Shown: positions 1,048 to 61,085, counted from the stretch's first letter. The stretch is DNA of 62,782 bases from Deltaproteobacteria bacterium (GCA_020062745.1 JAGUVT010000016.1:1-62782), one strand, 5' to 3'. Notes: generated from the sequence alone by a model not told the origin. A program made the numbers and translations.

Positions 1048-1836
1048 TTACCCTTCACCGGCGGCCCGTTCTGCCGTCAGGTACAGAGCCAGCAACTGGC
1101 CGCGCCGCTTGATCCCGAGCTTGGCGAAGATATTTTGCAGGTGCATTCTGACGGTATTTACCGAGATTTTTAAACTCTCCGCGATTTCCCGGTTCGCTAA
1201 CCCGGTCAAAACCATTTGCACGACATCGAGTTCGCGAGGGGTGAGGGATTCAAAAGAAAACCCCGGAACGTTGAGGGCAGGCCGTTCCCGGGAACTCCAA
1301 AACCGGCCGTGTGCTGCTTCCGCCAGGGCGTGGCGCCACTGCAGCCAGTTCAGCAGGTGGGGGTAAAGGATTTGCAGCGCCTGAACGTCCTCCGGACGGA
1401 AGTTGCCGGTTGATTTATCCCGGTAAAGGCAGAGCATGGCAAAGCCGGTCCGCCCTTTTTTTATGTTCAAACCCAGCAGGTAATGGGTGTGATAGGTTTG
1501 GAGAAAATCATTATAATATTCGCTTCGCCGCGTCCATTCCCCGTACTTAAGCAGATCCGTACTGCGGGCAACTAATAAACCACTGTCCCGGTGGGCCTGA
1601 AGAACCTCATCCAGATGAATATAGTAATTCAGGTAAGGTTTAATTGATTCAGCCGGAGTATCCAACCGGGCGAACTTTTCTTGAGGAAGACCGGTTAAAG
1701 GATCAATTAGCCCGAAGTTCGCCCCGTCAAACCAGATCAGGCGGCGAAGCTCCTGGAGAACTATCCGGCGCATTTCGTCAATATCTTGAGTGGCGCCGAT
1801 GACGGCGACAAGATCGAGGATTTTTTTGAACTGCAC
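1048..1836 (-). CDS. LuxR-family transcriptional regulator (C-terminal HTH, N-terminal sensory domain of unclear type)
   Basis: C-terminus LTPRELDVVQMVLTGLANREIAESLKISVNTVRMHLQNIFAKLGI is a canonical LuxR/GerE HTH. Confidence 0.85.
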   Translation of the reverse strand: MQFKKILDLVAVIGATQDIDEMRRIVLQELRRLIWFDGANFGLIDPLTGLPQEKFARLDTPAESIKPYLNYYIHLDEVLQAHRDSGLLVARSTDLLKYGEWTRRSEYYNDFLQTYHTHYLLGLNIKKGRTGFAMLCLYRDKSTGNFRPEDVQALQILYPHLLNWLQWRHALAEAAHGRFWSSRERPALNVPGFSFESLTPRELDVVQMVLTGLANREIAESLKISVNTVRMHLQNIFAKLGIKRRGQLLALYLTAERAAGEG

Positions 1837-2158
1837 GTAAAACCACTTCCCATGAATATTGAGCTTCCCTGCAGCTCAATTATAATACAAAAAAACTATT
1901 TTCTAATACTTTTGGATGTATACTGGAAGATTTATTTTTAGTAAAATTACATTGCCTTCCTAACAAAAGGAAGGGGTTGATGATCGGATTTTCGGACGGT
2001 TGGACTCTGTGTTCAAGTACTGGGGTGATCCTGCAAAATGACATGAACAAGGCTTTTGTGAATTGGGAAAGCATTCATTATTCCTGGTTACAGCTTCGGA
2101 CTAACCTTAAAACCGGTCCATCCAAGCGAACTTTGCACTTTTTTTGGAGGAGGGTAAT

Positions 2159-2707
2159 ATGCGTACAAAACGGTGTCTGGCGCTTTTGACTTTTTGTGTG
2201 CTTCTGTTTGTCGCAGGCTGCGGGGGATCCGGCAAGACCGTCGCGCCGCAGGGGGATGCCGGGGGAGCAAAGAAGACGGCCAAGGGACTTGTTGACCCAT
2301 GCGCGCTGCTGACCAAAGCCGAGGCTGAGGCCGCCCTGGGGGAGCAGGTTAAGGAGCCTGAGTTTACGGATACCAAGAATCCGCTGGGGCAGAAGCTATG
2401 CTTGTATTCACCCGTTTCGGAGAAAGCAAAGAGGTTCATCCAGTTATCTGTGGTGCAAAACGAGGGCATGGGGAAGAGCCTGCGTGACCAGGGGTACAAC
2501 GTAGAGCAGCTTTATGAGGAAACAAAGAATAACCTTACGGATGCGAAGCCCGTATCCGGCATAGGGGACGGGGCGTTCTGGGGTACCAACGGCCTCCATG
2601 TCTTAAAGGGGAACTTTTACCTCAACATCAGCGTAGGCAACACCAGCATTCCGCAAAACCTGGAACTGGCAAAGGGTCTTGCGGAGAAAGTCGTACCCCG
2701 GCTATAG
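2159..2707 (+). CDS. Hypothetical lipoprotein
   Basis: GGAGGAGGG RBS then ATG at 2159. Signal peptide with lipobox LLFVAGC. No recognisable catalytic motif. Confidence 0.7.
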   Translation: MRTKRCLALLTFCVLLFVAGCGGSGKTVAPQGDAGGAKKTAKGLVDPCALLTKAEAEAALGEQVKEPEFTDTKNPLGQKLCLYSPVSEKAKRFIQLSVVQNEGMGKSLRDQGYNVEQLYEETKNNLTDAKPVSGIGDGAFWGTNGLHVLKGNFYLNISVGNTSIPQNLELAKGLAEKVVPRL

Positions 2708-2804
2708 CATTGAAGCGGGTCGTTTGCCTCGCAGGCCGCTCTCCTTGATAGAAGGCAAGGATAGAATACCTTAAAAATCATAAAAGTAAAAGGAAGGTGA
2801 AAAG

Positions 2805-5055
2805 ATGAAATCGCGAAACAAAAGGACTTGTTTATTGATCCTGGCGATGCTGTTGCTTTCTTTGATCCCCGTTCCGGCGGGGGCGATTAACCCGCAGCCC
2901 GAGCCGCCGGGAGTGCCTGGCGCGATCAGTGTGTTTGTTGACGGGTCCCCCCTGACGATGGATGTGGCGCCGCTTATCGAACAGGGCCGCACGCTGGTTC
3001 CCCTGCGGGCGATCTTCGAGGCGCTGGGCGCCACGGTGGATTGGAACGAGGCAACCCGTACCGTGACCGGCAAAAAGGGCGCCACGACGATTAAGCTGGT
3101 TGTGGGGCTAGAAAGCGCCTACGTTAACGATAAACCCGTAACCCTTGATGTTCCCGGGAGGATAATCAATGGCCGGACGTTGGTCCCTTTGCGCTTCGTC
3201 AGTGAGTCGCTGGGTGCAGGTGTTGCCTGGGATGGGGCTGCCCGGAGGGTAACCATCTCTACCGCCGGAAGCCCCGTCGTTCCCGGGGTGACACAGGAGA
3301 CACCCGGGCTGCCGGGTTTTTCGAACGGGACGCAACCACCTCTTGCATCCGGCGATCTTGCCCGGCTGCTGCCGGCGTACTTAAAGCTTTCCGCCAACGA
3401 CAAAAGATTTGACGCCGCCTTTATCTACCAGGATAAGCTGCTGGCCAAGCCGCTGGACAAGAGCCTGATCCTGTCCTCGCTCCCCCAAAAACTGGATTAC
3501 TCCCCGTATCTTACCCTGACCGGAAACCAGGACGGCTGGGGCGGGTGCATAGGCCGCTCCATTGTGCATACCATCGACATCTTGAAGGAGATGGAGCATC
3601 CCTACTCCCCGGATTTCTCTTTCTGGTACCTCCATGCCCGCCAGGCTCAGTTGCTGGAAAGCGGGGCGCCGGACAGTATTGTTTCCAAGACCCTCCTGGA
3701 GAACCACGGCCTTTCCTCCGAAGTAACCATGCCCACGGATTATGACCCGGCCGAGTTGATTTACGATGGTCAAGGCAACCCGGTGAAATGGGATTATAGC
3801 GCCATGCCTCAGCCCACTGCGGCCGTCAATACCGAGGCGGGCCTCTACCGGGTGAAGCTCTTCAGCGACCCCGTCACCCCGGCCGTGGACGGGGTGAAGA
3901 GCCTGCTTTGCCGCTACGGTCCCGTAATCGCCGGCGGGCCCCTGCCGCTGCTCCTGGGGCCGAACCCGCCGGGAAGGCCACTGCATTACCATTGTGGGCT
4001 TTGACGACAGCCTGGATGTTTTCAAATGCCTGAACAGCTGGGGGGATACCTGGGGGCCGAATGGGAACGGTTTCTTTAATATGCCGTACAACCAACTGAC
4101 TGAGAACTTTGACTGGGTCAGGTACTTCGAGAACTGCCCCTCCGACCGTTCCGCCACCGGTCACGCTTACACCGCCCGGATCCGGATCCGCCACCAGAAC
4201 GAGCGTAACGACCTCACCGTAAAAATCGGGGTGGATGGCAAGGAGCCGCTGGTAGTGTGGAACCGGCCCAACGACGAACCCAAACCGCATCCTTACGACA
4301 ACAGCAAGGAACTCTTCATTGATGTGCCGCTGCCGGCCTATGCCCCGTCCAACTGGCCTCCGGGTTATTACCACCGGTGGTACGTAGAGGTTACGGATGG
4401 CGTAAAAGACAACCTGACCGCTCAAATCAAGGAAATCACCCTGGCCAGGCTTTACCACAACCCCGGCAACCTTACCGTGGGCAAATTTCAAACGGAGACT
4501 TATGTTCCCGAACAAACGAATATCACGGTTCCCGACGGCGGAAGCGTAAAGGTACACATTCCCGGCGCCAACCCTGCGAAGCCGCCGCTCGCGCCGCAAA
4601 TTCATTCTTCCTACACGCTGACCATCGAGCCGGGCCAAACTTCCGTGCTGCCGGGCAATCCAGTAACCCTGCAGGGGAAGCTTACCGTCAGCGCCATTGC
4701 TGGTCAAAGTTCCCCGGCCGCGGGGAGGGAAATCCGCATTTACAAATATATCGGGGACCCCTGCGTGAATAAACCCGGCCAATGGGCCATGGTCATTATG
4801 GCTACCCCGGTGAACGCTCCGCCGGATGCGGGAAAAATTTTTACCGGCTCCGACGGGACCTATACTGCAAGCCTTACACCTTCCGCCGGAAGGCACATCT
4901 ATGCGGCCGCCCTGGTTGACCAGAACGGCAAGGTGCTGGCTTCCAGCGGGGAAGCAGTAGTGAACGCAGGCCTGTCGCAATTGAAATTGCCGCAGGTTGA
5001 ATTATATCAACAATTCCCCGAAACAATTCCGGGGCCTGGTCCAATCATGGAATAA
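2805..5055 (+). pseudogene. Secreted stalk-domain (copper amine oxidase N-terminal-like) plus papain-like C1 cysteine peptidase plus C-terminal beta-sandwich domains, interrupted by one frameshift
   Basis: ORF 2805-4004 has a signal peptide, stalk repeats (GRTLVPLR x2) and the catalytic Cys context NQDGWGGCIGRS. The catalytic His context EGHCITIVGFDD...NSWGDTWG continues in the frame of ORF 3994-5055. The frame switches around 3965-3975. Confidence 0.75.
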
Positions 5056-8297: not shown

Positions 8298-8387
8298 GGA
8301 GAGATGGCCGAGTGGATGAAGGCGCACGCCTGGAGAGCGTGTGGACGGGAAACCGTCTCGTGGGTTCGAATCCCACTCTCTCCGCCA
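8298..8387 (+). tRNA. tRNA-Ser (anticodon GGA), encoded CCA end
   Basis: Manual cloverleaf. Acceptor GGAGAGA/TCTCTCC. Anticodon stem CACGC/GCGTG with loop CTGGAGA. Long variable arm GACGG-GAAA-CCGTC. T arm GTGGG-TTCGAAT-CCCAC. Discriminator G then CCA. Confidence 0.93.
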
Positions 8388-8397
8388 TTATAATTTT

Positions 8398-8666
8398 GGC
8401 CGTGCTAGGCGGGGAGGTAGCGGTGCCCTGTACCCGCAATCCGCTATAGCGGGGTTGAATTCTTGCCCGAGGGTTTGGCTTGTGGGGCCCGACCTGTGTA
8501 AGGGGTGTTGACGGTTGGGTCTTGTGCGACGGAGGTTCCTGAACCGTGTCAGGTCTTGACGGAAGCAGCACTAAGGGAAGCCCTCCGGGTGCCGCAAGGG
8601 TGCCTGACCTGAGCTACCTGTGCAGGTAACGCCCGGAAGTCATTATTCGACGGCAGGTGCACGGCC
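8398..8666 (+). ncRNA. ffs: Signal recognition particle RNA, long Bacillus-type (scRNA)
   Basis: The 5' GGCCGTGC pairs with the 3' GCACGGCC. An Alu-domain-like 5' part is present. The conserved domain IV motif GTCAGGTCTTGACGGAAGCAGCACTAAGG is present. Position directly upstream of dnaX matches Bacillus. Confidence 0.9.
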
Positions 8667-43780: not shown

Positions 43781-44473
43781 TTGGATAAGCCCAGGCTGGT
43801 GCCGATCCGGCTGGATAATTATAAGCCTTTACGGGAACTGGTGTTTGAGTCCCTGCGGGAGGCGATTATTGAGGGGCGCTTAAAACCAAATGAGCGATTG
43901 ATGGAAATCCAGTTGGCCGAAGAAATGGGAGTCAGCCGTACCCCGGTGCGGGAAGCTCTCAGGAAGCTCGAACTGGAGGGTTTTGTGGTAATGGTTCCCC
44001 GCAAAGGGGCCTATGTGGCCGGCATATCAATGAAAGATATTGTCGATGTTTTTGAGGTCCGGGCGGCCCTGGAGGCACTGGCTGCCGGGCTGGCAGCGGA
44101 ACGTATTACCGAAGAAGAGCTAGATCAGTTGGAACGGTATCTGGTGCAGATATACGAGCTGAGTGAGGGAGATAATATCAATGCCATTGTGGAAGGAGAT
44201 ACCAGTTTTCATGATGTTATGTACCGGGCCAGCCGCAACCAGAGGCTGGTGCAGATCATAACCCACCTGCAGGAGCAAATCCAGCGCTTCCGTATGACTT
44301 CTCTTTCCCAGCCGGGCCGTACCAGGGTGGCCCTGGAGGAACACAAAAAAATTGTCGATGCGGTAGCTGAACGAAACGTGGAACTGGCTCAGCATCTGGC
44401 CCGGGAACATATTGAAAACGCCGAGCAGAGCCTGTTGAATACCTTAAAAGAGGGGAAGGAAACAGATGGTTGA
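43781..44473 (+). CDS. GntR-family transcriptional regulator (FadR/FCD subfamily)
   Basis: wHTH LAEEMGVSRTPVREALRKLELEG plus a helical FCD C-domain. Confidence 0.92.
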   Translation: MDKPRLVPIRLDNYKPLRELVFESLREAIIEGRLKPNERLMEIQLAEEMGVSRTPVREALRKLELEGFVVMVPRKGAYVAGISMKDIVDVFEVRAALEALAAGLAAERITEEELDQLERYLVQIYELSEGDNINAIVEGDTSFHDVMYRASRNQRLVQIITHLQEQIQRFRMTSLSQPGRTRVALEEHKKIVDAVAERNVELAQHLAREHIENAEQSLLNTLKEGKETDG

Positions 44474-50979: not shown

Positions 50980-51009
50980 TTGATTAAACTGTTTGGGGGT
51001 AGGCTTAAA

Positions 51010-51957
51010 ATGTTTTCGGACAACAAAAGGCTTAAAATATTTGCCGGTAACGCAAATACCGGGCTGGCCGAAGAAATTGCCCGCTACCTGGGCGTGACCA
51101 TTGGCGCTGCCGAGATAAAGCGGTTCAGCGATGGAGAAGTACAGGTGAGAATTAATGAAAGCGTCCGCGGCGCCGATGTTTTTGTCATCCAGCCTACCTG
51201 CAACCCGGTCAACGAAAATTTGATGGAACTGCTGGTCATGGTGGACGCCATCCGGCGCGCTTCAGCCCGGCGGATAACTGCGGTGCTGCCTTATTACGGC
51301 TATGCCAGGCAGGATCGCAAGACCAGGGCCCGAGACCCGATTACAGCCAAGCTGGTGGCCAACATCCTGGTTGCCAGCGGCGCCAGGCGGGTAGTCTGCA
51401 TGGACCTGCACGCCGGCCAGATTCAGGGCTTTTTTGATATTCCGGTGGATCACCTGCCCGGCGTGCCGATCCTGGCCGAATATATTTTACAAAGCCAGTT
51501 GAAAGAAGTAGTGGTAGTGTCGCCGGACCTGGGCAGCGTCACCAGGGCCAGGGATCTGTCCGAGCGTATCGGCGCCCCGATTGCCATTATCGACAAGCGG
51601 CGGCCCGAGCCCAATGTAGTGGAAATTACGAATATAATCGGCGCCATTCAAGACAAGACGGTAGTGATGATTGACGACCTGATTGACACGGCGGGTACCA
51701 TTACCAAGGGGGCAGCAGCTTTAAAACAATGGGGGGCGAAGGATATTTATGTCTGCTGTACCCACGCCGTGCTTTCCGGACCTGCTGTACAACGGCTGGC
51801 GGAAGCGCCGATCAAGGAAGTGGTGGTGACCAATACGATCCCGGTACCGAAAGAAAAAATGATTGACAAGATCAAAGTGCTTTCGGTAGCCCCTTTGCTG
51901 GGCGAAGCCATTATCCGCATTTATGAGGATCTGTCGGTAAGCAAATTATTTGACTAG
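51010..51957 (+). CDS. prs: Ribose-phosphate pyrophosphokinase
   Basis: [22 protein letters not shown] loop [12 protein letters not shown]. Confidence 0.96.
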
Positions 51958-51961
51958 GGGG

Positions 51962-52450
51962 ATGGAAATGCTTAAAGAACCGGAAAGGTATTTTTTTGAG
52001 GATTTGGCAATCGGGGATAAAGTCGTTTCGCCCGGCCGGACGGTGACGGAAGCGGATATAGTCGTGTTTGCCGGTCTTTCCGCGGACTACATGCCTCTTC
52101 ATACTGACGCCGAGTTTTCCAAAAAATCAATTTTTGGGGAACGGGTGGCTCACGGGTTGCTTGGCCTGATTATAGCTTCCGGGTTGTTTACCAGGACAGA
52201 GTTGTCGGCCGGGATGAGAGAAACGGCACTGGCGTTGCTGGGTATCAACTCATGGAGATTTTTAGGGCCGATTAAGATCGGTGATACCGTTCATGTCGAA
52301 GTTGAAGTGGCGGAAAAGAGGGAGACAAGCAACCCCGGTCGGGGAATTGTTACTTTTAAAAGGCGGCTGATCAATCAGAGAGGGGAGATAGTGCAGGAGG
52401 GTGAAACACCGATGATGTTACGCAGAAAGGAGAAGAGTAATGAGAGTTAA
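51962..52450 (+). CDS. MaoC-like (R)-specific enoyl-CoA hydratase/dehydratase (hot-dog fold)
   Basis: TVTEADIVVFAGLSADYMPLHTD...FGERVAHG hydratase-2 motif region. Confidence 0.85.
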   Translation: MEMLKEPERYFFEDLAIGDKVVSPGRTVTEADIVVFAGLSADYMPLHTDAEFSKKSIFGERVAHGLLGLIIASGLFTRTELSAGMRETALALLGINSWRFLGPIKIGDTVHVEVEVAEKRETSNPGRGIVTFKRRLINQRGEIVQEGETPMMLRRKEKSNES

Positions 52451-53183
52451 AGATCGGGTAGCGATAATTACCGGCTCCGGCAGCGGTATCGGCAGGGCCA
52501 CGGCACACCGGCTGGCGGAGGAAGGAGCGAAAGTGGTAATCACGGATATTGTTGAAGAACGGGCAGCAAGTGCAGCGGCGGAAATTACGAGTAAAGGCGG
52601 CACGGCTATAGCAGTAAAGGCGGATGTATCGAAGAGCAGTGAGGTCGAAAACCTGATCAACAAAACCATTGAGGCTTTCGGCCGGATCGACATTCTGGTG
52701 AACAACGCCGGTTTTACTGTTGACGCGCTTATCAAAAACATGACTGAGGAAATGTGGGATGCGGTGGTGGATACCTGCCTCAAGGGGGCGTTTTTGTGTT
52801 CCAAATTTGCTTCTAATTATATGATCGAACAGAATTACGGGAAGATTGTGAACATTTCATCACGAGCCTACCTCGGTAATCCCGGCCAGGCCAATTATTC
52901 CTCGGCCAAGGCGGGGATAGTCGGCCTGACCCGCTCCCTGGCTTTGGAGCTTGGCCGCTATAACATCAACGTAAATGCTGTTGCGCCCGGCATGGTCAAT
53001 ACTGAAGGGCTTAAGAGCCACCCGAAATATGATTTCTTAATTGAACGTTCGATAAAGAACACTCCTCTGAAACGTGTCGGTGAACCGGTGGATATAGCCA
53101 ATGTCATACTATTCCTGGTTTCCGATGAATCTTCTTATATCACCGGCGACGTACTGCATGTAACCGGCGGAAGATACGCCTGA
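52440..53183 (+). CDS. Short-chain dehydrogenase/reductase (FabG-like)
   Basis: TGSGSGIGRA, NNAG, catalytic YSSAK. Confidence 0.9.
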   Translation: MRVKDRVAIITGSGSGIGRATAHRLAEEGAKVVITDIVEERAASAAAEITSKGGTAIAVKADVSKSSEVENLINKTIEAFGRIDILVNNAGFTVDALIKNMTEEMWDAVVDTCLKGAFLCSKFASNYMIEQNYGKIVNISSRAYLGNPGQANYSSAKAGIVGLTRSLALELGRYNINVNAVAPGMVNTEGLKSHPKYDFLIERSIKNTPLKRVGEPVDIANVILFLVSDESSYITGDVLHVTGGRYA

Positions 53184-53207
53184 GAGTATTCACGCCTGTA
53201 GAGATTG

Positions 53208-53250
53208 TCGAAAATCCCTGTTTTATCGTTGCGAGCGACCTTGAGGCGAG
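53208..53250. repeat. Intergenic repeat locus L12 (tail plus degenerate left half of module A) inside the catabolic cluster
   Basis: GTCGAAAATCCCTGTTTTATCGTTGCGAGCGACC, compared with CCTGAAAATCGCCCTTTTTGTCATTGCGAGCCGCC at 28081. Confidence 0.65.
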
Positions 53251-53283
53251 CCCCGATCATCATTTTGGCTTCTGGAGGTTTAT

Positions 53284-55098
53284 ATGCAAAACGGTGTAAA
53301 TGATATAAGTGGGATATATGAAGTGCTGGAGAGGCGGTTCAGCTTGCCCCGGAACGAGGGTACCGATAAGATTTGTTCGCTGCCTGAAGCAGTTAGAAAG
53401 CATGTGCGGCCCGGGATGGCCCTTCATTTCGGGCAAAATGGGGCGAGGTGGCCGGCAGCTGCTGTTTTCGAGGTGGCCAGGCAGTTCTGGGGCACAAAGC
53501 CGGATTTCACCCTGGTCGGCATTTCAATGAATGTTGTGCAGTCCGTGCTGGTGCACGGCGGGCTGGTAAAAAAACTTGTAACCACGTATTGCGGCGATCC
53601 TTACAACACCCCTGCTCCGAACGGTGTCTACCAGCGGGTTTACCTGGACGGTTCGGTGGAAATAGAGAACTGGACCATTCTTACCCTTCCCCTGCGCCTG
53701 AAAGCTGCTGCCATGGGCGTCGCTTATACCACTACAAACTCTATTATCGGCAGCAGTATGGAAGAAGAAAATAGCGAAAAGGGATTGTTCAAGGTGGTTG
53801 AAGACCCCTTCGGAAGCGACAGGAAAGTAGGTCTGATGCCTGCCCTGTACCCGGACTTGAGTTTTGTGCATGGCTGGGCTGCCGACCGCTACGGTAATAC
53901 GCTTATTCTTTCTCCATCGGCTGAAAATACATTTGGCGCTATGGCCAGCAGGAACGGCGTGATAGTTACCGCAGAAAAAATAGTTGACACTGAATATATA
54001 AGAAAGAACGCTCACCTTATGGCATTGCCCGGTGATTATGTACGGTGTGTTTGTGAGGCGCCGTTTGGAGCTCACCCATCGGGCATGGTAAATATCGGCC
54101 TGCCTGATTTTGATGGATATGCAGAAGACTATGATTTTGTGGACGGCGGCCGGATGGCTTCAAAAGACCCGGAAAGTTTTGAGCGGTGGGTGCGGGAGTG
54201 GGTGCTGGGCTGTGAGGATCACCAGGCCTATCTCCGCAAGCTGGGCGCCGACCGGATCCTCTACTTGAAGGGGAAAAGCCACGCCGACGCCTGGCGTTAT
54301 GATCTCAGCGTTATTAGCGAGGAGATTGCCGCCGGTTCCTACACCGCCCTGGAAATGGCGCTGGTAGCGACGGGGCGGGAGATAAAGAAGAGGATAAAGG
54401 CCGGTAATTTGAGGACCATCCTGGCCGGCGCCGGTATTGCCAACCTGGGTACCTGGCTGGCCTACTACGACTTGAAGGCGGAAGGGTACGACGTGGAGTT
54501 AATGGCGGAGGTGGGGCTTTACGGTTATAACCCGCGGCCTTTGGATCCCGCTGTTTTTAACCAGCGGAATTTCTTCACCTGTAAGGCGTTGACTGATACC
54601 CACACCTTGATGGGGATTTATATGAGCGGCGCCAATAACCGCTGTCTCGGCGTGCTGGGGTTCGGCCAGATCGACAAAAAGGGAAACATCAATACCACCA
54701 AAATACCGGGTAAGACTTATATTGCGGGCTCCGGCGGAGCCAATGACATTGCCAGCAATGTGCGTGAGATTGTGGCCGTGGGCACTCAGGATAAAAGAAG
54801 GTTTTTAGACCGCGTTTCTTATGTTACTTCACCCGGCGAAAGGGTGAGGACGCTGGTTTCCGACCTCGGAATTTATGAAAAATTACCGGGTGAGGATGAG
54901 TTTACCCTGACGGCGTACTTTCCTGCCGGAAGGTTCTCTTCAGTAGAGGAAAACGTGCGCCATATAAAGGAAAACTGCGGCTGGGACTTGAAAGTGGCGC
55001 GAAACCCTGCCGGAATCAAACCGCCGGCCGGAGAAGAGCTGATCATGCTTCGCCTGTTTGATCCGCGGCGGCACTTTCTGGGCGAGCCGGCTTCATGA
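53284..55098 (+). CDS. Family I CoA-transferase, fused alpha-beta (glutaconate CoA-transferase GctA/GctB-like)
   Basis: The N-half resembles GctA (KICSLPEAVRKHVRPGMALHFG...LRLKAAAMG). The C-half resembles GctB (AGAGIANL, MAEVGLYG, LGFGQIDKKGNIN, AGSGGANDIA). Confidence 0.8.
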   Translation: MQNGVNDISGIYEVLERRFSLPRNEGTDKICSLPEAVRKHVRPGMALHFGQNGARWPAAAVFEVARQFWGTKPDFTLVGISMNVVQSVLVHGGLVKKLVTTYCGDPYNTPAPNGVYQRVYLDGSVEIENWTILTLPLRLKAAAMGVAYTTTNSIIGSSMEEENSEKGLFKVVEDPFGSDRKVGLMPALYPDLSFVHGWAADRYGNTLILSPSAENTFGAMASRNGVIVTAEKIVDTEYIRKNAHLMALPGDYVRCVCEAPFGAHPSGMVNIGLPDFDGYAEDYDFVDGGRMASKDPESFERWVREWVLGCEDHQAYLRKLGADRILYLKGKSHADAWRYDLSVISEEIAAGSYTALEMALVATGREIKKRIKAGNLRTILAGAGIANLGTWLAYYDLKAEGYDVELMAEVGLYGYNPRPLDPAVFNQRNFFTCKALTDTHTLMGIYMSGANNRCLGVLGFGQIDKKGNINTTKIPGKTYIAGSGGANDIASNVREIVAVGTQDKRRFLDRVSYVTSPGERVRTLVSDLGIYEKLPGEDEFTLTAYFPAGRFSSVEENVRHIKENCGWDLKVARNPAGIKPPAGEELIMLRLFDPRRHFLGEPAS

Positions 55099-55152
55099 AG
55101 AAAGCAAAATATAATGTATGGCTCCAAAATATTGAGATAGGAGGAGAGAAAA

Positions 55153-55911
55153 ATGAGGTTTAAGGGGAAAGTAGCTATTGTTACCGGTTCGGCCGGCGCC
55201 GGGATCGGTCAAGCCTGTGCCCGGTCTTTTGCGAAGGAGGGGGCCGGCGTGGTTATAGCCGACCCGAACTCCAAGAGAACGTTTCAGGTGGCCGAGGCGA
55301 TTAAGAAAGACTATGGGGTGGAGACATTAGGTGTGGTCTGCGATGCGAGCAACAAAGAGCAGGTCGAAGAGATGGTCAAAAAAACAGTTGAAAAATTCGG
55401 CCGGGTCGACATTCTGGTCAATAACGCCGGCCGGGAACTCCTGGCCCAATGCGTGGATATGACCGATGAGCAGTGGAATGTGGTAATTGGCGTCTGTCTT
55501 TACGGCACCTTTTTCTGTACCAGGGCGGTCCTGCCTTATATGATCAAGCAGAATTACGGGCGGCTGGTGCACATTTCTTCCGTGGCCGGGTTTGTCGGAA
55601 TGGATGACGGGGAGAGCCATTATTGTGCGGCAAAGGCGGCTATCATGGGATTCTCACGGGCGGTTGCGGCGGAAACGGCAAAGTACAATATTACCTCTAA
55701 TGTAATAGCTCCGGGGCTGATCATGAATGAGTTTTTAAAACGGATTTACCCTCCGGAAGTGCTGCAGAAGTGGCATACCATGATTCCGAAAGGAAGGCCG
55801 GGAAAACCGGAGGACATAGCCAACGCGGTTTTGTTTTTTGCTGCTGAGGAATCGGAATATATCACCGGCGACATACTTACTGTGGCCGGTGGTTTTTACA
55901 TGCACCAGTAG
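55153..55911 (+). CDS. Short-chain dehydrogenase/reductase, second paralog
   Basis: TGSAGAGIGQA, NNAG, catalytic YCAAK. Confidence 0.9.
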   Translation: MRFKGKVAIVTGSAGAGIGQACARSFAKEGAGVVIADPNSKRTFQVAEAIKKDYGVETLGVVCDASNKEQVEEMVKKTVEKFGRVDILVNNAGRELLAQCVDMTDEQWNVVIGVCLYGTFFCTRAVLPYMIKQNYGRLVHISSVAGFVGMDDGESHYCAAKAAIMGFSRAVAAETAKYNITSNVIAPGLIMNEFLKRIYPPEVLQKWHTMIPKGRPGKPEDIANAVLFFAAEESEYITGDILTVAGGFYMHQ

Positions 55912-55949
55912 ATACTGCTGAGAGTTAAAGAAACGGGGGTTTAAGTTAT

Positions 55950-57059
55950 ATGGATCAACAAAAGGCAGAAAAATTGCTGGCTGATGCCAGTGAAGCGCTA
56001 AAGGCCGGGTATTACGATGAGTCTTACCGCCTTTTTAAAGAAGCGCTGGCAATATATAAAAACCTTGGTGATGAGCAGAAAGCTGGTCAGTGTGAATTGG
56101 AAGCGGAAGAAGTGAAAAGTAAAAGCGCAGGATGCGCTCCACTGCCGGCGGTGGATTACCATGCGCATCCTGTTTTCCGTTCAACCTTGAAAAAAGACCC
56201 GCCTCTTTACATGGCGGCGCGGCATTTTCGTTTGAAAGACGAAGTGGTGCCTGAGAACATCGCTGACATGGTCCGGCATATGGATGAAGGCAACGTAGAA
56301 AAAGCGGTGATCATGGCGCTGGACACCACGGCGTCTGATCACTGGGCTTTTCAGGGCCAGTTTTTAACCAACGATGGTGTGGCTGAAATAGTAAAAACGT
56401 ATCCGGACCGGTTTATCGGTTACGGCGCAGTAGATCCCAGGCGGCCGGACGCAGTGGAAGAAGTCGAGCGCTGTATTAAAGAGCTGAAATTTAAAGGGAT
56501 GAAATTTCATCCCGGGGCAGTGAGGCTGTACCCTAACGACGAGAAGTATTTTTACCCGATCTATGAAAAATGTGTAGAACTGGGGGTTCCCGTGCAGAGC
56601 CACTGCGGTACCACCGGTCTTTATTTTACCAAAATCAAGTATACCATGCCGCTGGGTTATGATGACGTGGCGGTGGATTTCCCCACCTTGAAACTGGTGC
56701 TTTTGCATTTTGGTATTGGCGGGTGGCATGATCAGGCGATGTCGGTGGCCTTCCGGCACCCCAATGTTTACATTGATATATCCGGCGCTTCGCCGCGGAT
56801 CATTCCGCAAAGTATAATTCTGGCGGCCAACACGCCTTTTTATCAGGACAAGATCATCTTTGGGACGGACTATCCTTTTGTGGGCATGGCCCAGTGGTTT
56901 TCTACTTTTAACAAAGTGCTCAAAGATGTCTGGACGCCTGAAACCAAACGGAAAGTGCTCCGGGAGAATGCTCTCGGCCTGCATGAGAAGCCGCCGGTGT
57001 CGCCGCTGGACATCCTGCGTAAAGAAGGTATTGATGTGCCGCCGGAGGCTAAAAGGTAG
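55950..57059 (+). CDS. Amidohydrolase_2 (ACMSD/LigW/LigI-type metal-dependent hydrolase/decarboxylase) with a ~70-aa TPR-like N-terminal extension
   Basis: VDYHAHP, KFHPG, QSHCG, HFGIGGW, FGTDYPF. The N-terminus is AGYYDESYRLFKEALAIYKNLGDEQKAG. Confidence 0.8.
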   Translation: MDQQKAEKLLADASEALKAGYYDESYRLFKEALAIYKNLGDEQKAGQCELEAEEVKSKSAGCAPLPAVDYHAHPVFRSTLKKDPPLYMAARHFRLKDEVVPENIADMVRHMDEGNVEKAVIMALDTTASDHWAFQGQFLTNDGVAEIVKTYPDRFIGYGAVDPRRPDAVEEVERCIKELKFKGMKFHPGAVRLYPNDEKYFYPIYEKCVELGVPVQSHCGTTGLYFTKIKYTMPLGYDDVAVDFPTLKLVLLHFGIGGWHDQAMSVAFRHPNVYIDISGASPRIIPQSIILAANTPFYQDKIIFGTDYPFVGMAQWFSTFNKVLKDVWTPETKRKVLRENALGLHEKPPVSPLDILRKEGIDVPPEAKR

Positions 57060-57067
57060 ACAGACGT

Positions 57068-57196
57068 ACAGCTGACGCGGCGATAGCAATGAGTAAAACA
57101 TATTGCCTCCCTGGTGTTATTGTGGGGGCAAAGCCAAAAAGCAATCTTGAACTGATAGCTTATATGGGGTCGCTTCGCCTTAAGGCTCGCAATGAC
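57068..57196. repeat. Intergenic repeat locus L13 (modules B-like, inner A, right terminus of A) inside the catabolic cluster
   Basis: AGCTGACGCGGCGATAGC, AAAAGCAATCTTGAACTGATAGCTTAT, CGCTTCGCCTTAAGGCTCGCAATGAC. Confidence 0.75.
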
Positions 57197-57248
57197 AAGA
57201 AAAAAGGTTTTTGAAGGCAACGCACTTAAGATATTGAGGGGGAAGCTT

Positions 57249-58400
57249 ATGGACTTTGAACTTACTGACGAGCAAAAGATGCTTAAAAGCAACGTGCGCC
57301 GGTTTTTAGAAAAAGAGGTTCAGCCCCTGGTCGACCAGTACGAGCGTTCCGCGACGCCTGTATCGAGGGATATAGTCAAGAGGCTTTTGCCGTTTGGTTA
57401 TATCGGCGGCATGCTGCCGGAAGAAGCCGGCGGTTATGGTATGGACTATACCACTTATTTTTTATTAATCGAGGAACTTTCCCGGACATGGCCTTCCTTA
57501 CGGGCGGCCGTCGGAATTACCAATCACATGTTAACGTATATTTACGAGTACGGAACCGGGGAACAGCGGGAGAAATTTGTCGGGCCGCTGGTAAGGGCCG
57601 ACAAGATGGGATTTTTTGCCCTTACCGAGCCTAACGTAGGGTCGGATGCTTCTGCCGTGGAGACGACTGCTGTGCAGCAGGGCGACGAGTGGATTTTGAA
57701 TGGCACGAAAATGTTTATTACCAACGGGCAGGACGGTGAAACCGGCATTGTTATCGCCCAAACCGACAAGGCTAAAGGAAGTAAGGGCATAACCGCTTTT
57801 ATCGTGGAAAAAGGCAAAACCAGCTATAAAACCAGGCCGATTGAAAAAATCGGGATGCATTGTTGCCCCACAGTGGAAATGGTCTTTGAAGACGCACGGG
57901 TACCGGCGGAAAATATACTTGGGGGGATCGGTAATGGTTTAAAGTTGGGGCTAAAGTTTTTAAACAGTGCCCGGGCCATGGTGGCTTTTATCAGTGCCGG
58001 GGTGGCGCAGGGTTGTGTCGATGCGGCTGTCAAATATGCCAAGGAACGAATCCAGTTTGGTAAGCCGATTGGCAGTTTTCAACTGATCCAGAGTAAAATT
58101 GCTGAAATGCTCACCCTGACATCTGCCATGCGCCTTTTAGGTTTGCAGGCTTCTTACCTGTTGGATAAAGGGAGACCCTGCCAGGTAGAAGCGTCTATGG
58201 CCAAGCTTTTTTCTACCGATGCTGTGCTCAAAGTAGCTGAAATGGCTATTCAGATTCACGGCGGGTACGGGTGCAGCATGGAGTTTCCGGTAGAGCGTTA
58301 TTATCGTGACATGAGACATTTTACCATTGCTGAAGGAACCAATGAAATCCAGCGCCTGATTATCGGGCGGGAGGTGTTGGGTATTCCGGCATTCAAATAG
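57249..58400 (+). CDS. Acyl-CoA dehydrogenase
   Basis: MDFELTDEQKML start, FALTEPNVGSDAS, QIHGGYG, catalytic-base context AEGTNEIQRL. The listed 57192 start reads out of the repeat. Confidence 0.93.
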   Translation: MDFELTDEQKMLKSNVRRFLEKEVQPLVDQYERSATPVSRDIVKRLLPFGYIGGMLPEEAGGYGMDYTTYFLLIEELSRTWPSLRAAVGITNHMLTYIYEYGTGEQREKFVGPLVRADKMGFFALTEPNVGSDASAVETTAVQQGDEWILNGTKMFITNGQDGETGIVIAQTDKAKGSKGITAFIVEKGKTSYKTRPIEKIGMHCCPTVEMVFEDARVPAENILGGIGNGLKLGLKFLNSARAMVAFISAGVAQGCVDAAVKYAKERIQFGKPIGSFQLIQSKIAEMLTLTSAMRLLGLQASYLLDKGRPCQVEASMAKLFSTDAVLKVAEMAIQIHGGYGCSMEFPVERYYRDMRHFTIAEGTNEIQRLIIGREVLGIPAFK

Positions 58401-58420
58401 GGTTTTAAGGGGGGAAGTTT

Positions 58421-59566
58421 ATGCTGCCGTTTGAAGGAGTACGTGTAGTCGATCTTACTGCGTTGCTGCCCGGCCCCTTTTGTTCGATGATTTTATGCGA
58501 CCTGGGCGCCGAGGTGATTAAAATTGAGAGGCCTGCCGGGGGGGACCCCGGAAGGGCGATGATCCCGGCGCTTTTTTCCGCCGTTAATCGTGGGAAGAAA
58601 AGCCTTACCTTAAATTTGAAGGATGAAAAGGGTAGAAAGGCGCTCGAAAAACTGGTTGAAAAAGGTGACGTTTTTCTGGAGGGGTTCCGGCCCGGCGCCG
58701 TCGACAGGCTGGGCTTCGGCTATAATAAAGTTAAAGAGATGAACCCGCGCCTGGTTTACTGCTCCATTTCCGGCTACGGGCAGAACGGGCCTTACCGGGA
58801 TCTGCCGGGGCATGACGTCAACTACCTGGGAGTGGCCGGCACACTATATTTCAGCGGCGAACCGCAGGGGCCCCCAGCGGCTTCCGGCGGGGTTCAGATA
58901 GCTGATTTGTGCTCTTCTATGTATGCCGCCGTGGCTGTAATGGCCTCCCTGCGGCAGAGGGACAAAACCGGTATGGGTGATTATCTGGACGTATCCATGA
59001 CCGAATGCGCTCTGGCCTGGGCGGGGCCGCGTATTGCCGAGTTTTACGGCCTGAATTGCCCGCCCAAAGAAAAATACATGGGGCGCGGTGCTTACGGGGT
59101 TTATGAAGCCAGGGATGGAAAGTATTTTACCCTGGGTTGTGTGGAGGAGCACTTTTGGCAGAGCCTCTGTCGTTTGCTGGGTCTCGAAGAGATGGCTAAA
59201 AGTGAAAAATACGGCAGTTGGCTGCGCCGTAACGCGCTGGCGGATGAAATCGATCCGGTATTAAAAGAGATATTTTTACAAAAAGACCGGGATGAATGGC
59301 TGGATTTAATGAACAAGGCAGATATTCCGTGCGGGCCGGTTAATGCTCCCCAGGAATTGTCAAACGATCCCCATCTGGCCGCCAGGGGTGTGATCAGCCA
59401 GGCGGAGGAACACCCGTTGATTGCCTTTCCGGTAAAATTTGACCGCCTGCAAATGAAGCCGAAGGGACCGTTGCCGAAACTGGGAGAGCATACGGAAGAA
59501 ATCCTGACCGGTCTTGGTTACGGGCCGGATGAAATCGCCAGAATGAGAACCGCCGGCGTTATTTAA
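58421..59566 (+). CDS. Family III CoA-transferase (CaiB/BaiF/Frc type)
   Basis: GVRVVDLTALLPGPFCSMILCDLGAEVIKIE, GFRPG, SISGYGQNGPY, HDVNY. Confidence 0.93.
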   Translation: MLPFEGVRVVDLTALLPGPFCSMILCDLGAEVIKIERPAGGDPGRAMIPALFSAVNRGKKSLTLNLKDEKGRKALEKLVEKGDVFLEGFRPGAVDRLGFGYNKVKEMNPRLVYCSISGYGQNGPYRDLPGHDVNYLGVAGTLYFSGEPQGPPAASGGVQIADLCSSMYAAVAVMASLRQRDKTGMGDYLDVSMTECALAWAGPRIAEFYGLNCPPKEKYMGRGAYGVYEARDGKYFTLGCVEEHFWQSLCRLLGLEEMAKSEKYGSWLRRNALADEIDPVLKEIFLQKDRDEWLDLMNKADIPCGPVNAPQELSNDPHLAARGVISQAEEHPLIAFPVKFDRLQMKPKGPLPKLGEHTEEILTGLGYGPDEIARMRTAGVI

Positions 59567-60428
59567 TGAGCGTAAAGTTTCTATTATTTTGATCCGGGTC
59601 GGTTGGCCCGGATTTTTCTTCTGCTCCCGGCCCGGGTTTTTCTTGCTCTTTGCCGTTTTTTGCCTGTTTTTCTTCTGTCCCCTTTTCTTTTAGTCTCCCC
59701 TTTACTTTCTCCAGGCGCTTATTGATCTTGTCATTAATATTCCTGGCGTTCTGGACGGCGATATTCCGCCAGCGGCTGCCGGCTTCATTGATGCTTTTTA
59801 CAAAATCTTGTAAACCGCTGTCGAGTTTAGCAATGTTTTCTATAGCTTCATTAGTGGTAATTATCGCTTCCCTGCCGATGGTCCGGACATGATTGATGTC
59901 CAGCAAAGCCCGGCCTTTAAGGGTACTGTTGATAAAACTGCCCGAAATTTCCAGGCCGGTAATATTGCCGGTAAGCGGATCCAGCCGGTATTCATCGGCA
60001 AAGCCCAGAAAGGTACCGTTTTCAGCTACAATTCTGGCACCGATGATGCTCGCCTTTTCTTTTACCAGTTTGATAATATCGGGCAGGTTCGGGCTTCTTT
60101 CCAAACCATTGGATTTTTCAATGGTAATGGCGTCATTACCGATGCTGTGGATCTTTTGGAAAGGTATGAACTTCTGTTCTTTAAACCAACCTTTTTGCTC
60201 AATGATCAGGGCGGCCAATGTTTTCCGGACTGGATCGACAACCAGACCCCGCACGGAACCCACCTGCAAGCCCTCCGCCAGGCTGATCAGCGGCAATGAT
60301 ATAAGCTGTTTGCTTTTCCGCACTGGTTTCGCCTCCTTCAGGTCGAGACTTATCTTTTTTGATGGAAATAGCTTTTGGTAATAATATGCTCCGGAAAGAA
60401 TGGTTATGACAAAAAAAGGAATAAACAA
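59559..60428 (-). CDS. Membrane-anchored protein with two PRC-barrel domains and a Lys/Glu-rich tail
   Basis: SLAEGLQVGSVRGLVVDP and IIGARIVAENGTFLGFADEYRLDP are PRC-barrel-like. The start is uncertain: TTG 60428 after GGAAAGAG is preferred, because the listed ATG 60689 would overlap pth by ~190 nt. Confidence 0.6.
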   Translation of the reverse strand: MFIPFFVITILSGAYYYQKLFPSKKISLDLKEAKPVRKSKQLISLPLISLAEGLQVGSVRGLVVDPVRKTLAALIIEQKGWFKEQKFIPFQKIHSIGNDAITIEKSNGLERSPNLPDIIKLVKEKASIIGARIVAENGTFLGFADEYRLDPLTGNITGLEISGSFINSTLKGRALLDINHVRTIGREAIITTNEAIENIAKLDSGLQDFVKSINEAGSRWRNIAVQNARNINDKINKRLEKVKGRLKEKGTEEKQAKNGKEQEKPGPGAEEKSGPTDPDQNNRNFTLIK

Positions 60429-60497
60429 TAAAAACTCTTTCCACTTTTGCTTTATCCGGGTTACAATGTTGAGGATGGAAAAGCAGAGGTGGCGAGT

Positions 60498-61085
60498 ATG
60501 AAATTGCTTGTCGGCCTGGGCAACCCGGGCCGGGAATATGTCGGCACCAGGCACAATATGGGATTTATGGTTATTGACCGGCTGGCGTCGATTTTGGAGG
60601 CGCCGGTAAAAAAGCGGCTTTTTCGGGCTTTGACCGGCCGGGGAGAGTTGGCCGGGGAAGAAATAATCCTGGCCAAACCGCAGACCCATATGAACTTGAG
60701 CGGGGAAGCGGTAGGGGCCCTGTTAAACTGGTACAAGCCGGGTTTTTCCAACCTCCTGGTTATATATGACGACCTGGACTTGCCGGCGGGACGCCTGCGG
60801 TTGCGTCCGCGGGGAGGAGCGGGTGGTCACAAAGGGATGCAGTCGATAATTCAGGCTCTGGGCACGGATGTTTTTCCCCGCCTGAGGGTGGGTATCGGCA
60901 GGCCGCAGGAGCCCTGTGCCGGAGCAGATTTTGTGCTGAAGCGGTTTGCCCCGGAGGAGACTGAAAAATTTGCCGGCATTGTAGAGGTTGCTGCCGAAGC
61001 TGTCCGGTGTTTCATATGTGAGGGGTTGGAACAGGCGATGAACCGGTATAACCGGTATAATAATTCAGATAATGTATATATTTAG
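60498..61085 (+). CDS. pth: Peptidyl-tRNA hydrolase
   Basis: MKLLVGLGNPGREYVGTRHNMGF, YDDLDLP, GGHKGM. Confidence 0.96.
   Translation: MKLLVGLGNPGREYVGTRHNMGFMVIDRLASILEAPVKKRLFRALTGRGELAGEEIILAKPQTHMNLSGEAVGALLNWYKPGFSNLLVIYDDLDLPAGRLRLRPRGGAGGHKGMQSIIQALGTDVFPRLRVGIGRPQEPCAGADFVLKRFAPEETEKFAGIVEVAAEAVRCFICEGLEQAMNRYNRYNNSDNVYI

Follow-up and report, generated by a model that had tools for sequence, protein, structure and literature searches.

How the rings and chains of alicyclic and polycyclic compounds are cleaved without oxygen is only partly understood. In the naphthalene degrader N47, the thn operon places genes for an amidohydrolase-superfamily hydrolase (thnN), an acyl-CoA dehydrogenase (thnO) and a CoA-transferase acting intramolecularly (thnP) side by side (PMC12016498, PMC11659651). 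The function of ThnN is untested, and the protein is the leading candidate for the opening of naphthalene ring I (PMC12016498); BamU, the homologue in Geobacter, is a protein of no known function that is induced on benzoate (PMC12016498, PMC11659651, PMC1924859). SRAH from Sterolibacterium denitrificans, a characterised enzyme from the Amidohydrolase-2 family, hydrolyses a cyclic 1,3-diketone of steroid ring A as the free compound, and the product is then activated with CoA by a ligase or CoA transferase, dehydrogenated by an acyl-CoA dehydrogenase and hydrated (PMC11780191). SRAH and 1-TDH genes have been reported only from denitrifying proteobacteria, and strict anaerobes may use another route (PMC11780191). 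The ring hydrolase IpdAB has lost the glutamate of CoA-transferases (in the RHA1 enzyme the beta subunit has Gly57 instead) and transfers no CoA, two arguments made against its being a transferase (PMC5380842). Here we compare with these systems a seven-gene island in a stretch of 62,782 nucleotides (nt) deposited as Deltaproteobacteria bacterium (GCA_020062745.1 JAGUVT010000016.1:1-62782), the whole of which is called the window below. Judged by its sequence, the island is real, functional and well delimited, it is a variant of a known beta-oxidation-like catabolic cluster, and nothing in it demands new chemistry. We interpret the seven genes as one operon-like, probably co-transcribed catabolic module and as a rearranged version, without thiolase and DUF35, of a widespread cluster type that would run an (R)-specific beta-oxidation-like cycle on a bulky, branched, dicarboxylic or alicyclic acid, an explanation that, taken whole, we hold to be evenly balanced between right and wrong.

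Seven co-directional open reading frames (ORFs) fill positions 51962-59566 of the + strand, the interval given by an earlier reading of this DNA from sequence alone (the first-pass annotation). Pfam assigned all seven proteins well above the gathering score, as follows (protein lengths in amino acids, aa).

51962..52450, + strand: MaoC-type (R)-specific enoyl-CoA hydratase, 162 aa (PF01575, 87 bits), overlapping the next gene by 11 nt
52440..53183, + strand: SDR1, a short-chain dehydrogenase/reductase (SDR), probably an NAD-dependent (3R)-hydroxyacyl-CoA dehydrogenase of the BbsD/MFE-2 type (PF13561, 234 bits, and PF00106)
53284..55098, + strand: CoAT1, a fused alpha-beta family I CoA-transferase of the GctAB type, 604 aa (PF01144, 77.5 bits, in two stretches)
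55153..55911, + strand: SDR2, a second NAD-dependent SDR, partner of CoAT1 and AH2 (PF13561, 215 bits)
55950..57059, + strand: AH2, a long-form Amidohydro_2 metal-dependent enzyme, 369 aa (PF04909, 161 bits)
57249..58400, + strand: acyl-CoA dehydrogenase (ACAD), 383 aa (PF02771, PF02770 and PF00441), the longest ORF running from 57192
58421..59566, + strand: CoAT3, a family III (CaiB/BaiF/Frc) CoA-transferase (PF02515, 363 bits)

Only 4 nt separate the upstream gene prs from the MaoC gene, and the gaps that follow the MaoC/SDR1 overlap measure 100, 54, 38, 189 and 20 nt. A Shine-Dalgarno-like sequence precedes each start; for ACAD, position 57249 is the most likely start because it has a good ribosome-binding site and gives the 383 aa seen in homologues. 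The gene families named by the first-pass annotation (MaoC, SDR, a fused 604-aa CoA-transferase, a further SDR, Amidohydro_2, ACAD and CoA_transf_3) are those that Pfam returns, and the ORF coordinates bear out the tight spacing, the common direction and the flanking genes prs and pth. None of the seven proteins reached an NCBIfam equivalog cut-off, and AH2 matched no NCBIfam model. That annotation had seen no thiolase, crotonase or electron-transferring flavoprotein (ETF) gene in the seven-gene set; the whole window holds none, and no DUF35 gene either, according to both tblastn and Pfam annotation of the remaining ORFs; the latter likewise revealed no reductase of the old yellow enzyme (OYE) type in the window.

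Homologues of CoAT1 are carried, at the level of species genomes, by Peptococcaceae bacterium SCADC1_2_3, Desulfotomaculum UBA9916, Bacillota metagenome-assembled genomes, Desulfobacterales, Syntrophaceae/Smithellaceae, Dehalococcoidia and Rokubacteria, and island genes cluster together in Peptococcaceae SCADC1_2_3, Desulfotomaculum UBA9916, the Bacillota genomes, Desulfobacterales and metagenome contigs. The arrangements that bear on the thiolase question are these.

L001, L006 and L009 (Peptococcaceae/Desulfotomaculum; CoAT1 67-68% identical): [thiolase-DUF35-ECH-thiolase-DUF35]-SDR-CoAT1-AH2-SDR1-DUF35-thiolase-ACAD-CoAT3, the SDR before CoAT1 being undetected in L009
L003, L090 and L091: SDR1-DUF35-thiolase-MaoC-ACAD-(flavodoxin-like gene, L003)-SDR2-CoAT1-AH2-MaoC', then ACAD' (L003) or CoAT3 (L090, L091)
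L002, L007 and L008 (Desulfobacterales): ACAD-MaoC-SDR1-DUF35-thiolase-CoAT1-AMP ligase
L172 (Rhodococcus jostii RHA1 pRHL3, record 180331-190945; CoAT1 40% identical): thiolase-OB fold-ACAD-ECH-ECH-SDR-fused CoA-transferase
L173 (Azoarcus sp. KH32C pAZKH; CoAT1 35% identical): SDR-CoA-transferase-ECH-SDR-ACAD, ETF beta, ETF alpha and, further on, thiolase

In the nine distinct loci where CoAT1 is at least 55% identical, thiolase together with DUF35 occurs within 8 kb in seven, ACAD in seven, an SDR in seven and AH2 in four, so the thiolase-less state is local to the present island. The order MaoC-SDR1-[100 nt]-CoAT1 in the window reads as the Desulfobacterales order minus DUF35 and thiolase. 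The first-pass annotation had taken the island for a thiolase-less pathway, naming beforehand adjacent thiolase and ETF genes in other genomes as the mark of an ordinary truncated operon; the thiolase part of that mark is there in seven of the nine close loci, often between the same genes, and leaves the claim unsupported, while ETF genes are adjacent only in the distant Azoarcus cluster. For annotation practice, the missing thiolase of this window is a lesson in local loss, and no sign of new chemistry. Looser versions of the architecture are recognisable in aerobes and denitrifiers, with an SDR directly upstream of the fused transferase on RHA1 pRHL3 and on Azoarcus pAZKH as well. Near the cores of these two plasmid clusters lie regulators (GntR and TetR in RHA1), ETF genes and a DcaP porin. 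We found no assigned pathway in the literature for the island cluster, for that of Peptococcaceae SCADC or for those on RHA1 pRHL3 and Azoarcus pAZKH.

These neighbourhoods also bear on a plainer account, in which the island is an ordinary truncated beta-oxidation operon served by housekeeping thiolase and ETF genes elsewhere, with AH2 and CoAT1 in generic roles such as CoA recycling. Thiolases in the relatives, and ETF genes too in the Azoarcus cluster, would suit it, every island enzyme comes from a common family, and many aerobes as well as anaerobes carry clusters of this type. However, the conserved thiolases are of the DUF35-partnered SCP-x type for bulky or branched substrates rather than of the FadA type, the long-form AH2 proteins make up a tight subfamily, specific to the cluster, that has its own N- and C-terminal extensions, and two different CoA-transferases and two SDRs are kept under strong purifying selection, which leads us to consider this account unlikely, though a serious one. 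Methylmalonyl-CoA-mutase-like genes adjoin two CoAT1 clusters (L002, 13632-15741, - strand, with a gene for a B12-binding subunit adjacent; L087, 18122-19777, - strand) and could hint at a carbon-skeleton rearrangement in some versions of the pathway.

In the translation of the MaoC gene, the Asp/His hydratase motif is readable as ADYMPLH; the best solved relatives of the protein are 1q6w and the hydratase domain of PaaZ, and it is 58-66% identical to the MaoC proteins of the related clusters. SDR1 best matches 2et6, a (3R)-hydroxyacyl-CoA dehydrogenase (3e-75), and BbsD (7pcs_B, 2e-70) in the PDB, and SDR2 has the same matches (2et6, 7e-69; BbsD, 1e-51); together with the MaoC hydratase, these matches point to a beta-oxidation set with (R) specificity, comparable to those of MFE-2, bbs and steroid side-chain degradation. 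Both SDRs, which share 45% protein identity, have the TGxxxGxG, NNAG and S..Y...K motifs complete, and an Asp at the end of beta2 suggests that both use NAD. Among the relatives, SDR1 travels with MaoC, DUF35 and thiolase, standing directly before the DUF35-thiolase pair, and SDR2 with CoAT1 and AH2, one or the other of which it adjoins in L003, L004, L005, L089, L090 and L091.

Both proteins thus look like active BbsD/MFE-2-type dehydrogenases belonging to different gene modules. BbsC, the partner of BbsD, is an inactive SDR subunit, and the first-pass annotation had likened the two island SDRs to the paralogous SDR subunits of the bbs system. No match of either SDR to BbsC passed 1e-40 in the PDB search; as both are catalytically complete and BbsD-like, separated by CoAT1 and associated with different partners, an active/inactive heteromer of the BbsCD kind is unsupported, and we rejected it. 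SDR1 and SDR2 share in-register repeats of 70 nt (52642-52711 and 55361-55430) and 45 nt (52817-52861 and 55536-55580) at 80-82% nucleotide identity, which could be conserved motifs or traces of past gene conversion.

The catalytic Glu of ACAD lies in the motif AEGT. Its best PDB matches are the butyryl-CoA dehydrogenases 4l1f and 5ol2 and the glutaryl-CoA dehydrogenase 3mpi, so that it resembles ETF-dependent enzymes of these two types, and it shares 70% identity with the L001 ACAD. CoAT3, which is 56-61% identical to the CoAT3 proteins of L001, L006 and L090, had been compared with the family III transferase of the benzylsuccinate (bbs) system. It is a single gene, however, and matches SUGCT (9br7, 4e-65) far better than BbsF (3e-37) or BbsE (8e-33), which places it, by similarity, closest to the SUGCT-type dicarboxylate transferases.

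The first-pass annotation had proposed that either the amidohydrolase or the fused CoA-transferase, the latter like IpdAB, cleaves a carbon-carbon bond in place of a thiolase. Among solved proteins, CoAT1 matches GctA (6e-25, residues 29-329), GctB (1e-13, residues 353-598), AibA (5e-11), fused 3-oxoacid and acetate:succinate transferases, and IpdA (2e-8); its alpha half is about 28% identical to GctA. CoA_trans domains are found in both halves, and the HMMER alignment sets E409 (MAEVGL) on Glu54 of GctB (IVESGL), so the catalytic Glu expected in an LMAEVG context is present. E409 and the GSGGAND motif recur without change in all 19 family members aligned (17 diverse proteins plus the Rhodococcus and Azoarcus homologues). 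The AlphaFold model has a mean predicted local distance difference test (pLDDT) score of 77, with a low-confidence loop at 410-445, and shows the fold of fused and heteromeric family I enzymes; in Foldseek it best matches YdiF (7e-25), followed by ASCT and SCOT, with a template modelling (TM) score of 0.83 for GctA. The alignment and the model together argue for CoAT1 being a true Glu-dependent CoA-transferase rather than a retro-Claisen hydrolase.

A thiolase-independent pathway with CoAT1 as an IpdAB-like retro-Claisen or retro-aldol C-C hydrolase could draw on the low identity to GctAB (about 25-28%), the matches to IpdA and AibA, the SDR beside CoAT1, which recalls IpdF in the ipd regulon, the OYE-type reductase genes in L001, L003 and L086, and the lack of a thiolase in the window. 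We nevertheless consider it very unlikely. IpdAB lacks transferase activity (PMC5380842) along with the equivalent of GctB Glu54, and because CoAT1 has kept this Glu it is, by that measure, a transferase and not an IpdAB-like hydrolase, a function that we rejected for it. Moreover, its structural neighbours are genuine transferases, and thiolase and DUF35 genes lie beside it in seven of the nine close loci. The genomic surroundings of IpdAB (the echA20 crotonase hydrolase, ipdC, ipdF and fadA6) are not reproduced either, adjacency of an SDR being the sole shared feature.

The CoAT1 family comprises at least 1,593 proteins, nearly all from uncultured anaerobes and named only 'glutaconate CoA-transferase' or 'CoA-transferase', and no characterised member is among the matches listed. 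Directly upstream of a nuo (complex I) operon, one locus (L085, 1498-6899) has four tandem CoA_trans genes, two of them fused (about 590 aa) and the others encoding alpha and beta separately, which shows a local expansion of the family.

AH2 is the enzyme to which C-C cleavage may more plausibly be ascribed. Its model (pLDDT 93.5) has only PF04909-type structural neighbours, and the protein has the TIM barrel and the metal ligands of Amidohydro_2 enzymes, namely an HxH motif, further His residues and the strand-8 Asp; H71, H218, H253 and D307 never vary in the homologue alignment, and H73 almost never does. The N-terminal extension, which the first-pass annotation had called TPR-like, is modelled as three helices (residues 2-61, pLDDT above 90) and has no TPR match in Pfam, so that assignment was dropped. 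In the best 120 matches, long-form proteins (368-376 aa) make up a tight subfamily of at least 64% identity, in which some 65 aa of helical sequence extend the N-terminus and some 25 aa form a tail at the C-terminus, and short-form proteins (about 280 aa) are 33-48% identical to the window AH2. Long-form genes adjoin SDR2 and/or CoAT1 in L001, L003, L004, L005, L006, L009, L089, L090 and L091, and in L011-L013 an AH2 homologue of 37% identity follows CoAT1, so that adjacency of AH2 to CoAT1 or SDR2 spans several phyla. An SDR gene stands directly upstream of 7 of 54 short-form genes. Three short-form proteins (P0153, P0154 and P0167; 36-42% identity) come from alkane-oxidising or related archaea (Candidatus Syntrophoarchaeum butanivorans, Syntropharchaeales and Baldrarchaeia). 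On annotated plasmids the homologues are named only 'amidohydrolase family protein'.

By sequence and fold alike, AH2 comes closest among solved proteins to BB4693 (3irs), which is uncharacterised; ACMSD-type decarboxylases, the hydratase LigJ, LigI-like lactonases and, weakly, the C-C hydrolase LigY rank next. This ranking invites another ending for the pathway, patterned on CtfAB/Adc, in which SDR1 would make a 3-oxoacyl-CoA, CoAT1 would move the CoA to an incoming acid, AH2 would decarboxylate the beta-keto acid to a ketone and SDR2 might interconvert ketone and alcohol, with no need of a thiolase. Such a scheme would account for the adjacency of CoAT1 and AH2 and for the local loss of the thiolase; 3irs apart, the closest characterised structural relatives of AH2 are indeed non-oxidative decarboxylases, and CoAT1 also matches 3-oxoacid CoA-transferases. 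But the known substrates of the ACMSD-family decarboxylases in the match lists are aromatic or vinylogous acids (2,3-dihydroxybenzoate, 5-carboxyvanillate, gamma-resorcylate and ACMS), and we know of none for a simple beta-keto acid. Most relatives, furthermore, keep a thiolase beside CoAT1 and AH2, and we regard this ending as a distinctly doubtful one. That AH2 cleaves a C-C bond, as the first-pass annotation had suggested, remains plausible by analogy with SRAH, a characterised Amidohydrolase-2 enzyme acting on a beta-diketone (PMC11780191), a decarboxylase being the other possibility for AH2.

Our preferred explanation, the (R)-specific cycle on an unusual acid, divides the island into a beta-oxidation set (ACAD, MaoC and SDR1) and a unit of SDR2, AH2 and CoAT1. 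The unit would act first: oxidation of a hydroxyl group by SDR2 would yield a beta-dicarbonyl or oxo compound, AH2 would use its metal centre to cleave this free, non-CoA compound hydrolytically, or to decarboxylate it, and CoAT1 would thioesterify the resulting carboxylate without ATP. Dehydrogenation by ACAD, (R)-hydration by MaoC and oxidation by SDR1 would then lead to a 3-oxoacyl-CoA, and CoAT3, being SUGCT-like, may activate a dicarboxylate or shift CoA between carboxyl groups. The final thiolysis, which relatives would perform with their SCP-x-type thiolase and DUF35, may be supplied from elsewhere in the genome or be replaced; alternatively, the hydrolytic step may suffice instead of a thiolase in the lineage of the window. 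The explanation builds on the domain families, intact catalytic residues, purifying selection, conserved neighbourhoods and the variable genomic slot, all of which were directly observed. The interpretation given by the first-pass annotation is accordingly only partly supported: an unusual (dicarboxylic or alicyclic) acyl-CoA pathway fits the evidence, and a pathway without thiolase, in which the transferase fold does the cleaving, is not supported.

Several observations weigh against this explanation. Pfam annotation found no ETF, regulator or transporter for the island within the 62.8-kb window. The next-closest solved relatives of AH2 after 3irs are decarboxylases, so that by sequence and model AH2 may be a hydrolase or a decarboxylase, and its link to SRAH, ThnN and BamU is an analogy at the level of Pfam family and pathway logic. 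Long-form AH2 genes in L092 and L094 have none of the partner genes beside them, and the close clusters L002, L007 and L008 have CoAT1 without AH2, so the pairing of CoAT1 and AH2 is frequent and not obligatory. A more specific proposal, that SDR2, CoAT1 and AH2 form an unrecognised C-C hydrolysis and re-activation module of strict anaerobes, with AH2 opening the ring or chain of a free compound, a counterpart of SRAH and of the reaction proposed for ThnN with alicyclic compounds (terpenoids, naphthenic acids or steroid-derived rings) as possible substrates and with the thiolase dispensable in this lineage, is in our estimate improbable.

The genes give every appearance of being maintained. 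Against a sister species (L005), in which CoAT1 is 91% identical to that of the window, the ratio of nonsynonymous to synonymous substitution rates (dN/dS) is 0.069 for CoAT1, 0.035 for SDR2 and 0.043 for AH2, the three genes for which it was computed, and an 11-kb contig from a deep-subsurface metagenome, 99.8% identical, keeps the order prs-MaoC-SDR1-CoAT1-SDR2. These values indicate strong purifying selection on the island genes. In L005, a 421-aa ORF (1768-3033, - strand), an MFS-type transporter by the look of its translation, lies between CoAT1 and SDR2; it is absent from the window.

Comparison with the order MaoC-SDR1-DUF35-thiolase-CoAT1 in L002, L007 and L008 makes the window look like the product of a DUF35 and thiolase deletion, and with neither a regulator nor a transporter for the island in the window one might take it for a decaying, non-functional remnant. 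Yet the seven ORFs are all intact, keep their catalytic residues and have good ribosome-binding sites, dN/dS lies at 0.035-0.07 and the same order recurs in an independent sample; the island is therefore not decaying, and a remnant is highly improbable. No remains of DUF35 or thiolase were detected by tblastn in the window, and the 100-nt gap between SDR1 and CoAT1 and the 189-nt gap between AH2 and ACAD, read by eye, show nothing recognisable.

The genes that delimit the island, with a terminator-like hairpin, are as follows.

50980..51957, + strand: prs (ribose-phosphate diphosphokinase; NF002320, 480 bits), the upstream anchor, with its stop 4 nt before the first island gene
59591..59614, + strand: terminator-like hairpin (10-bp stem with 6 GC pairs, T-rich tail), 25 nt 3' of the last island gene
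59559..60689, - strand: PRC-barrel domain gene (PF05239, 37 bits), the downstream anchor, outside the island
60447..61085, + strand: pth (peptidyl-tRNA hydrolase; PF01195, 223 bits)
from about 61601: mfd (UvrB_inter match), its frame still open where the window ends

A scan for terminators from 49 to 62 kb listed the hairpin at 59591-59614 first on the + strand, with the longest stem, and found no terminator-like site between prs and the MaoC gene. Transcription of the island probably ends at this hairpin, and the island probably shares a transcript with glmU-prs or follows directly behind it. The PRC-barrel ORF shares 8 nt with the 3' end of CoAT3, spans the hairpin and overlaps the start of pth. 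It encodes 376 aa with a Lys/Glu-rich C-terminal tail; since homologues in the relatives have 260-289 aa, the ORF is probably over-extended at the N-terminus, with its real start internal.

The rest of the window (tRNA-Ser, SRP RNA, dnaX, recR, tmk, holB, metG, tatD, ksgA, yabG, sipL, ispE, spoVG, glmU and prs) is the kind of housekeeping block that spore-formers typically have near the origin. Among homologues of the prs protein, the host adjoins Pelotomaculum and other Desulfotomaculaceae at 85-88% identity, which identifies it, by sequence, as a Pelotomaculum-related spore-former. Three relatives keep the upstream block (ispE, GntR/FCD regulator, NTP_transf_3, histidine kinase, PALP, spoVG, glmU and prs), and where their contigs reach far enough they also keep the downstream block of PRC (minus strand), pth and mfd, the PRC genes of L170 and L171 (260-289 aa) likewise standing before pth. 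What lies between differs: the interval from prs to PRC (51958-59558 in the window, 9949-15772 in L170 and 9949-14941 in L171) holds two MFS transporters, PilZ and HSP90 in a Pelotomaculum genome, where ctc/L25 is present, and a gerA germinant-receptor operon in a metagenome contig, where ctc is missing. Conserved blocks on both sides with unrelated cargo between them uphold the claim of the first-pass annotation that the island is inserted into the prs-pth synteny, and the interval appears to be a variable cargo slot of Pelotomaculum-type genomes with the island as lineage-specific cargo. The order prs-island-pth was right as to its flanks and had overlooked the minus-strand PRC-barrel gene that stands between the island and pth. 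Similarly, a probe-based search of the window confirmed that ctc/L25 is lacking, but the lack is not tied to the island because one island-free relative has no ctc either; another has it, making one of the three compared.

A mobile-element origin was rejected: Pfam annotation of the window revealed no integrase, transposase or other mobility gene, the island borders carry no flanking repeats (the only notable repeats in the repeat search being the SDR1/SDR2 paralogue segments), no tRNA lies near the island (the only one in the window is at 8298), and GC content (0.49-0.55 within the island, 0.42-0.55 in the flanks) shows no shift in composition. Rfam and tRNA scans found no riboswitch or leader near the island, and only the SRP RNA and tRNA-Ser far upstream. 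The latter, a tRNA-Ser(GGA) followed by the large bacterial signal recognition particle RNA at 8298-8664, upstream of dnaX and recR, are in the standard Firmicutes arrangement. Bacillus has purR after ispE; in the window a GntR/FCD regulator (43781-44473) holds that place, and as it is kept in relatives without the island (L169-L171) it is not the regulator of the island.

The cluster type is widespread, occurring in Peptococcaceae (including an alkane-degrading culture), Desulfobacterales, Syntrophales and Chloroflexi. Because two of its families are large and uncharacterised, namely the fused GctAB-type transferases (at least 1,593 proteins) and the long-form Amidohydro_2 proteins, it offers concrete, expressible candidate enzymes, and with them the island contributes candidates to the question of anaerobic ring cleavage.

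Set beside the described systems, the island shares with bbs and bns (benzylsuccinate and naphthyl-2-methylsuccinate) the logic of a family III CoA-transferase, ACAD, hydratase, SDR, and thiolase with a DUF35/OB-fold partner; SDR1 resembles BbsD (2e-70), and relatives of the island carry BbsAB-like DUF35-thiolase pairs. It differs in its hydratase, which is of the MaoC type and not a crotonase, in its single family III transferase, and in having no inactive BbsC-like SDR. Nothing in the window corresponds to a BbsEF-like heteromer, an adjacent BbsCD pair or BbsAB, and the family I transferase and the Amidohydro_2 enzyme have no bbs counterpart. CoAT1 has the fold, the catalytic Glu position and the GSGGAND oxyanion-type motif of GctAB (Acidaminococcus fermentans), YdiF, ASCT and SCOT; compared with GctAB, it joins both halves, alpha and beta, in a single Gct-type chain of 604 aa that belongs to a separate family. 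AibAB is a decarboxylase. Together with IpdAB, which hydrolyses ring C of COCHEA-CoA in steroid catabolism, AibAB of Myxococcus belongs to the GctAB-like fold family in which CoAT1 also falls, and both are found in a context of alicyclic or branched acyl-CoA catabolism with adjoining SDR and reductase genes; IpdAB has lost the Glu and transfers no CoA, whereas CoAT1 has kept it.

For AH2, the parallels are with SRAH and the thn operon. SRAH belongs to the same Amidohydrolase 2 family and has a mass of about 40 kDa like the long-form AH2, but the preceding oxidation in SRAH clusters is carried out by the molybdoenzyme 1-TDH and not by an SDR. No protein of Sterolibacterium, N47 or Geobacter, the organisms of SRAH (WP_154715975.1), ThnN (N47_E41360) and BamU (Gmet_2147), is among the named proteins in the best 120 AH2 matches, and SRAH and AH2 are therefore probably distant. 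ThnP is of the CoA-transferase/acetyl-CoA hydrolase type without the usual Glu (PMC11659651; PMC6849830) and not of family III, and the aryl-CoA reductase genes of the thn system are absent from the window. In its functional order, however, thnN-thnO-thnP equals AH2-ACAD-CoAT3 of the island, and the thn system likewise includes MaoC hydratases, SDR-type dehydrogenases and thiolases.

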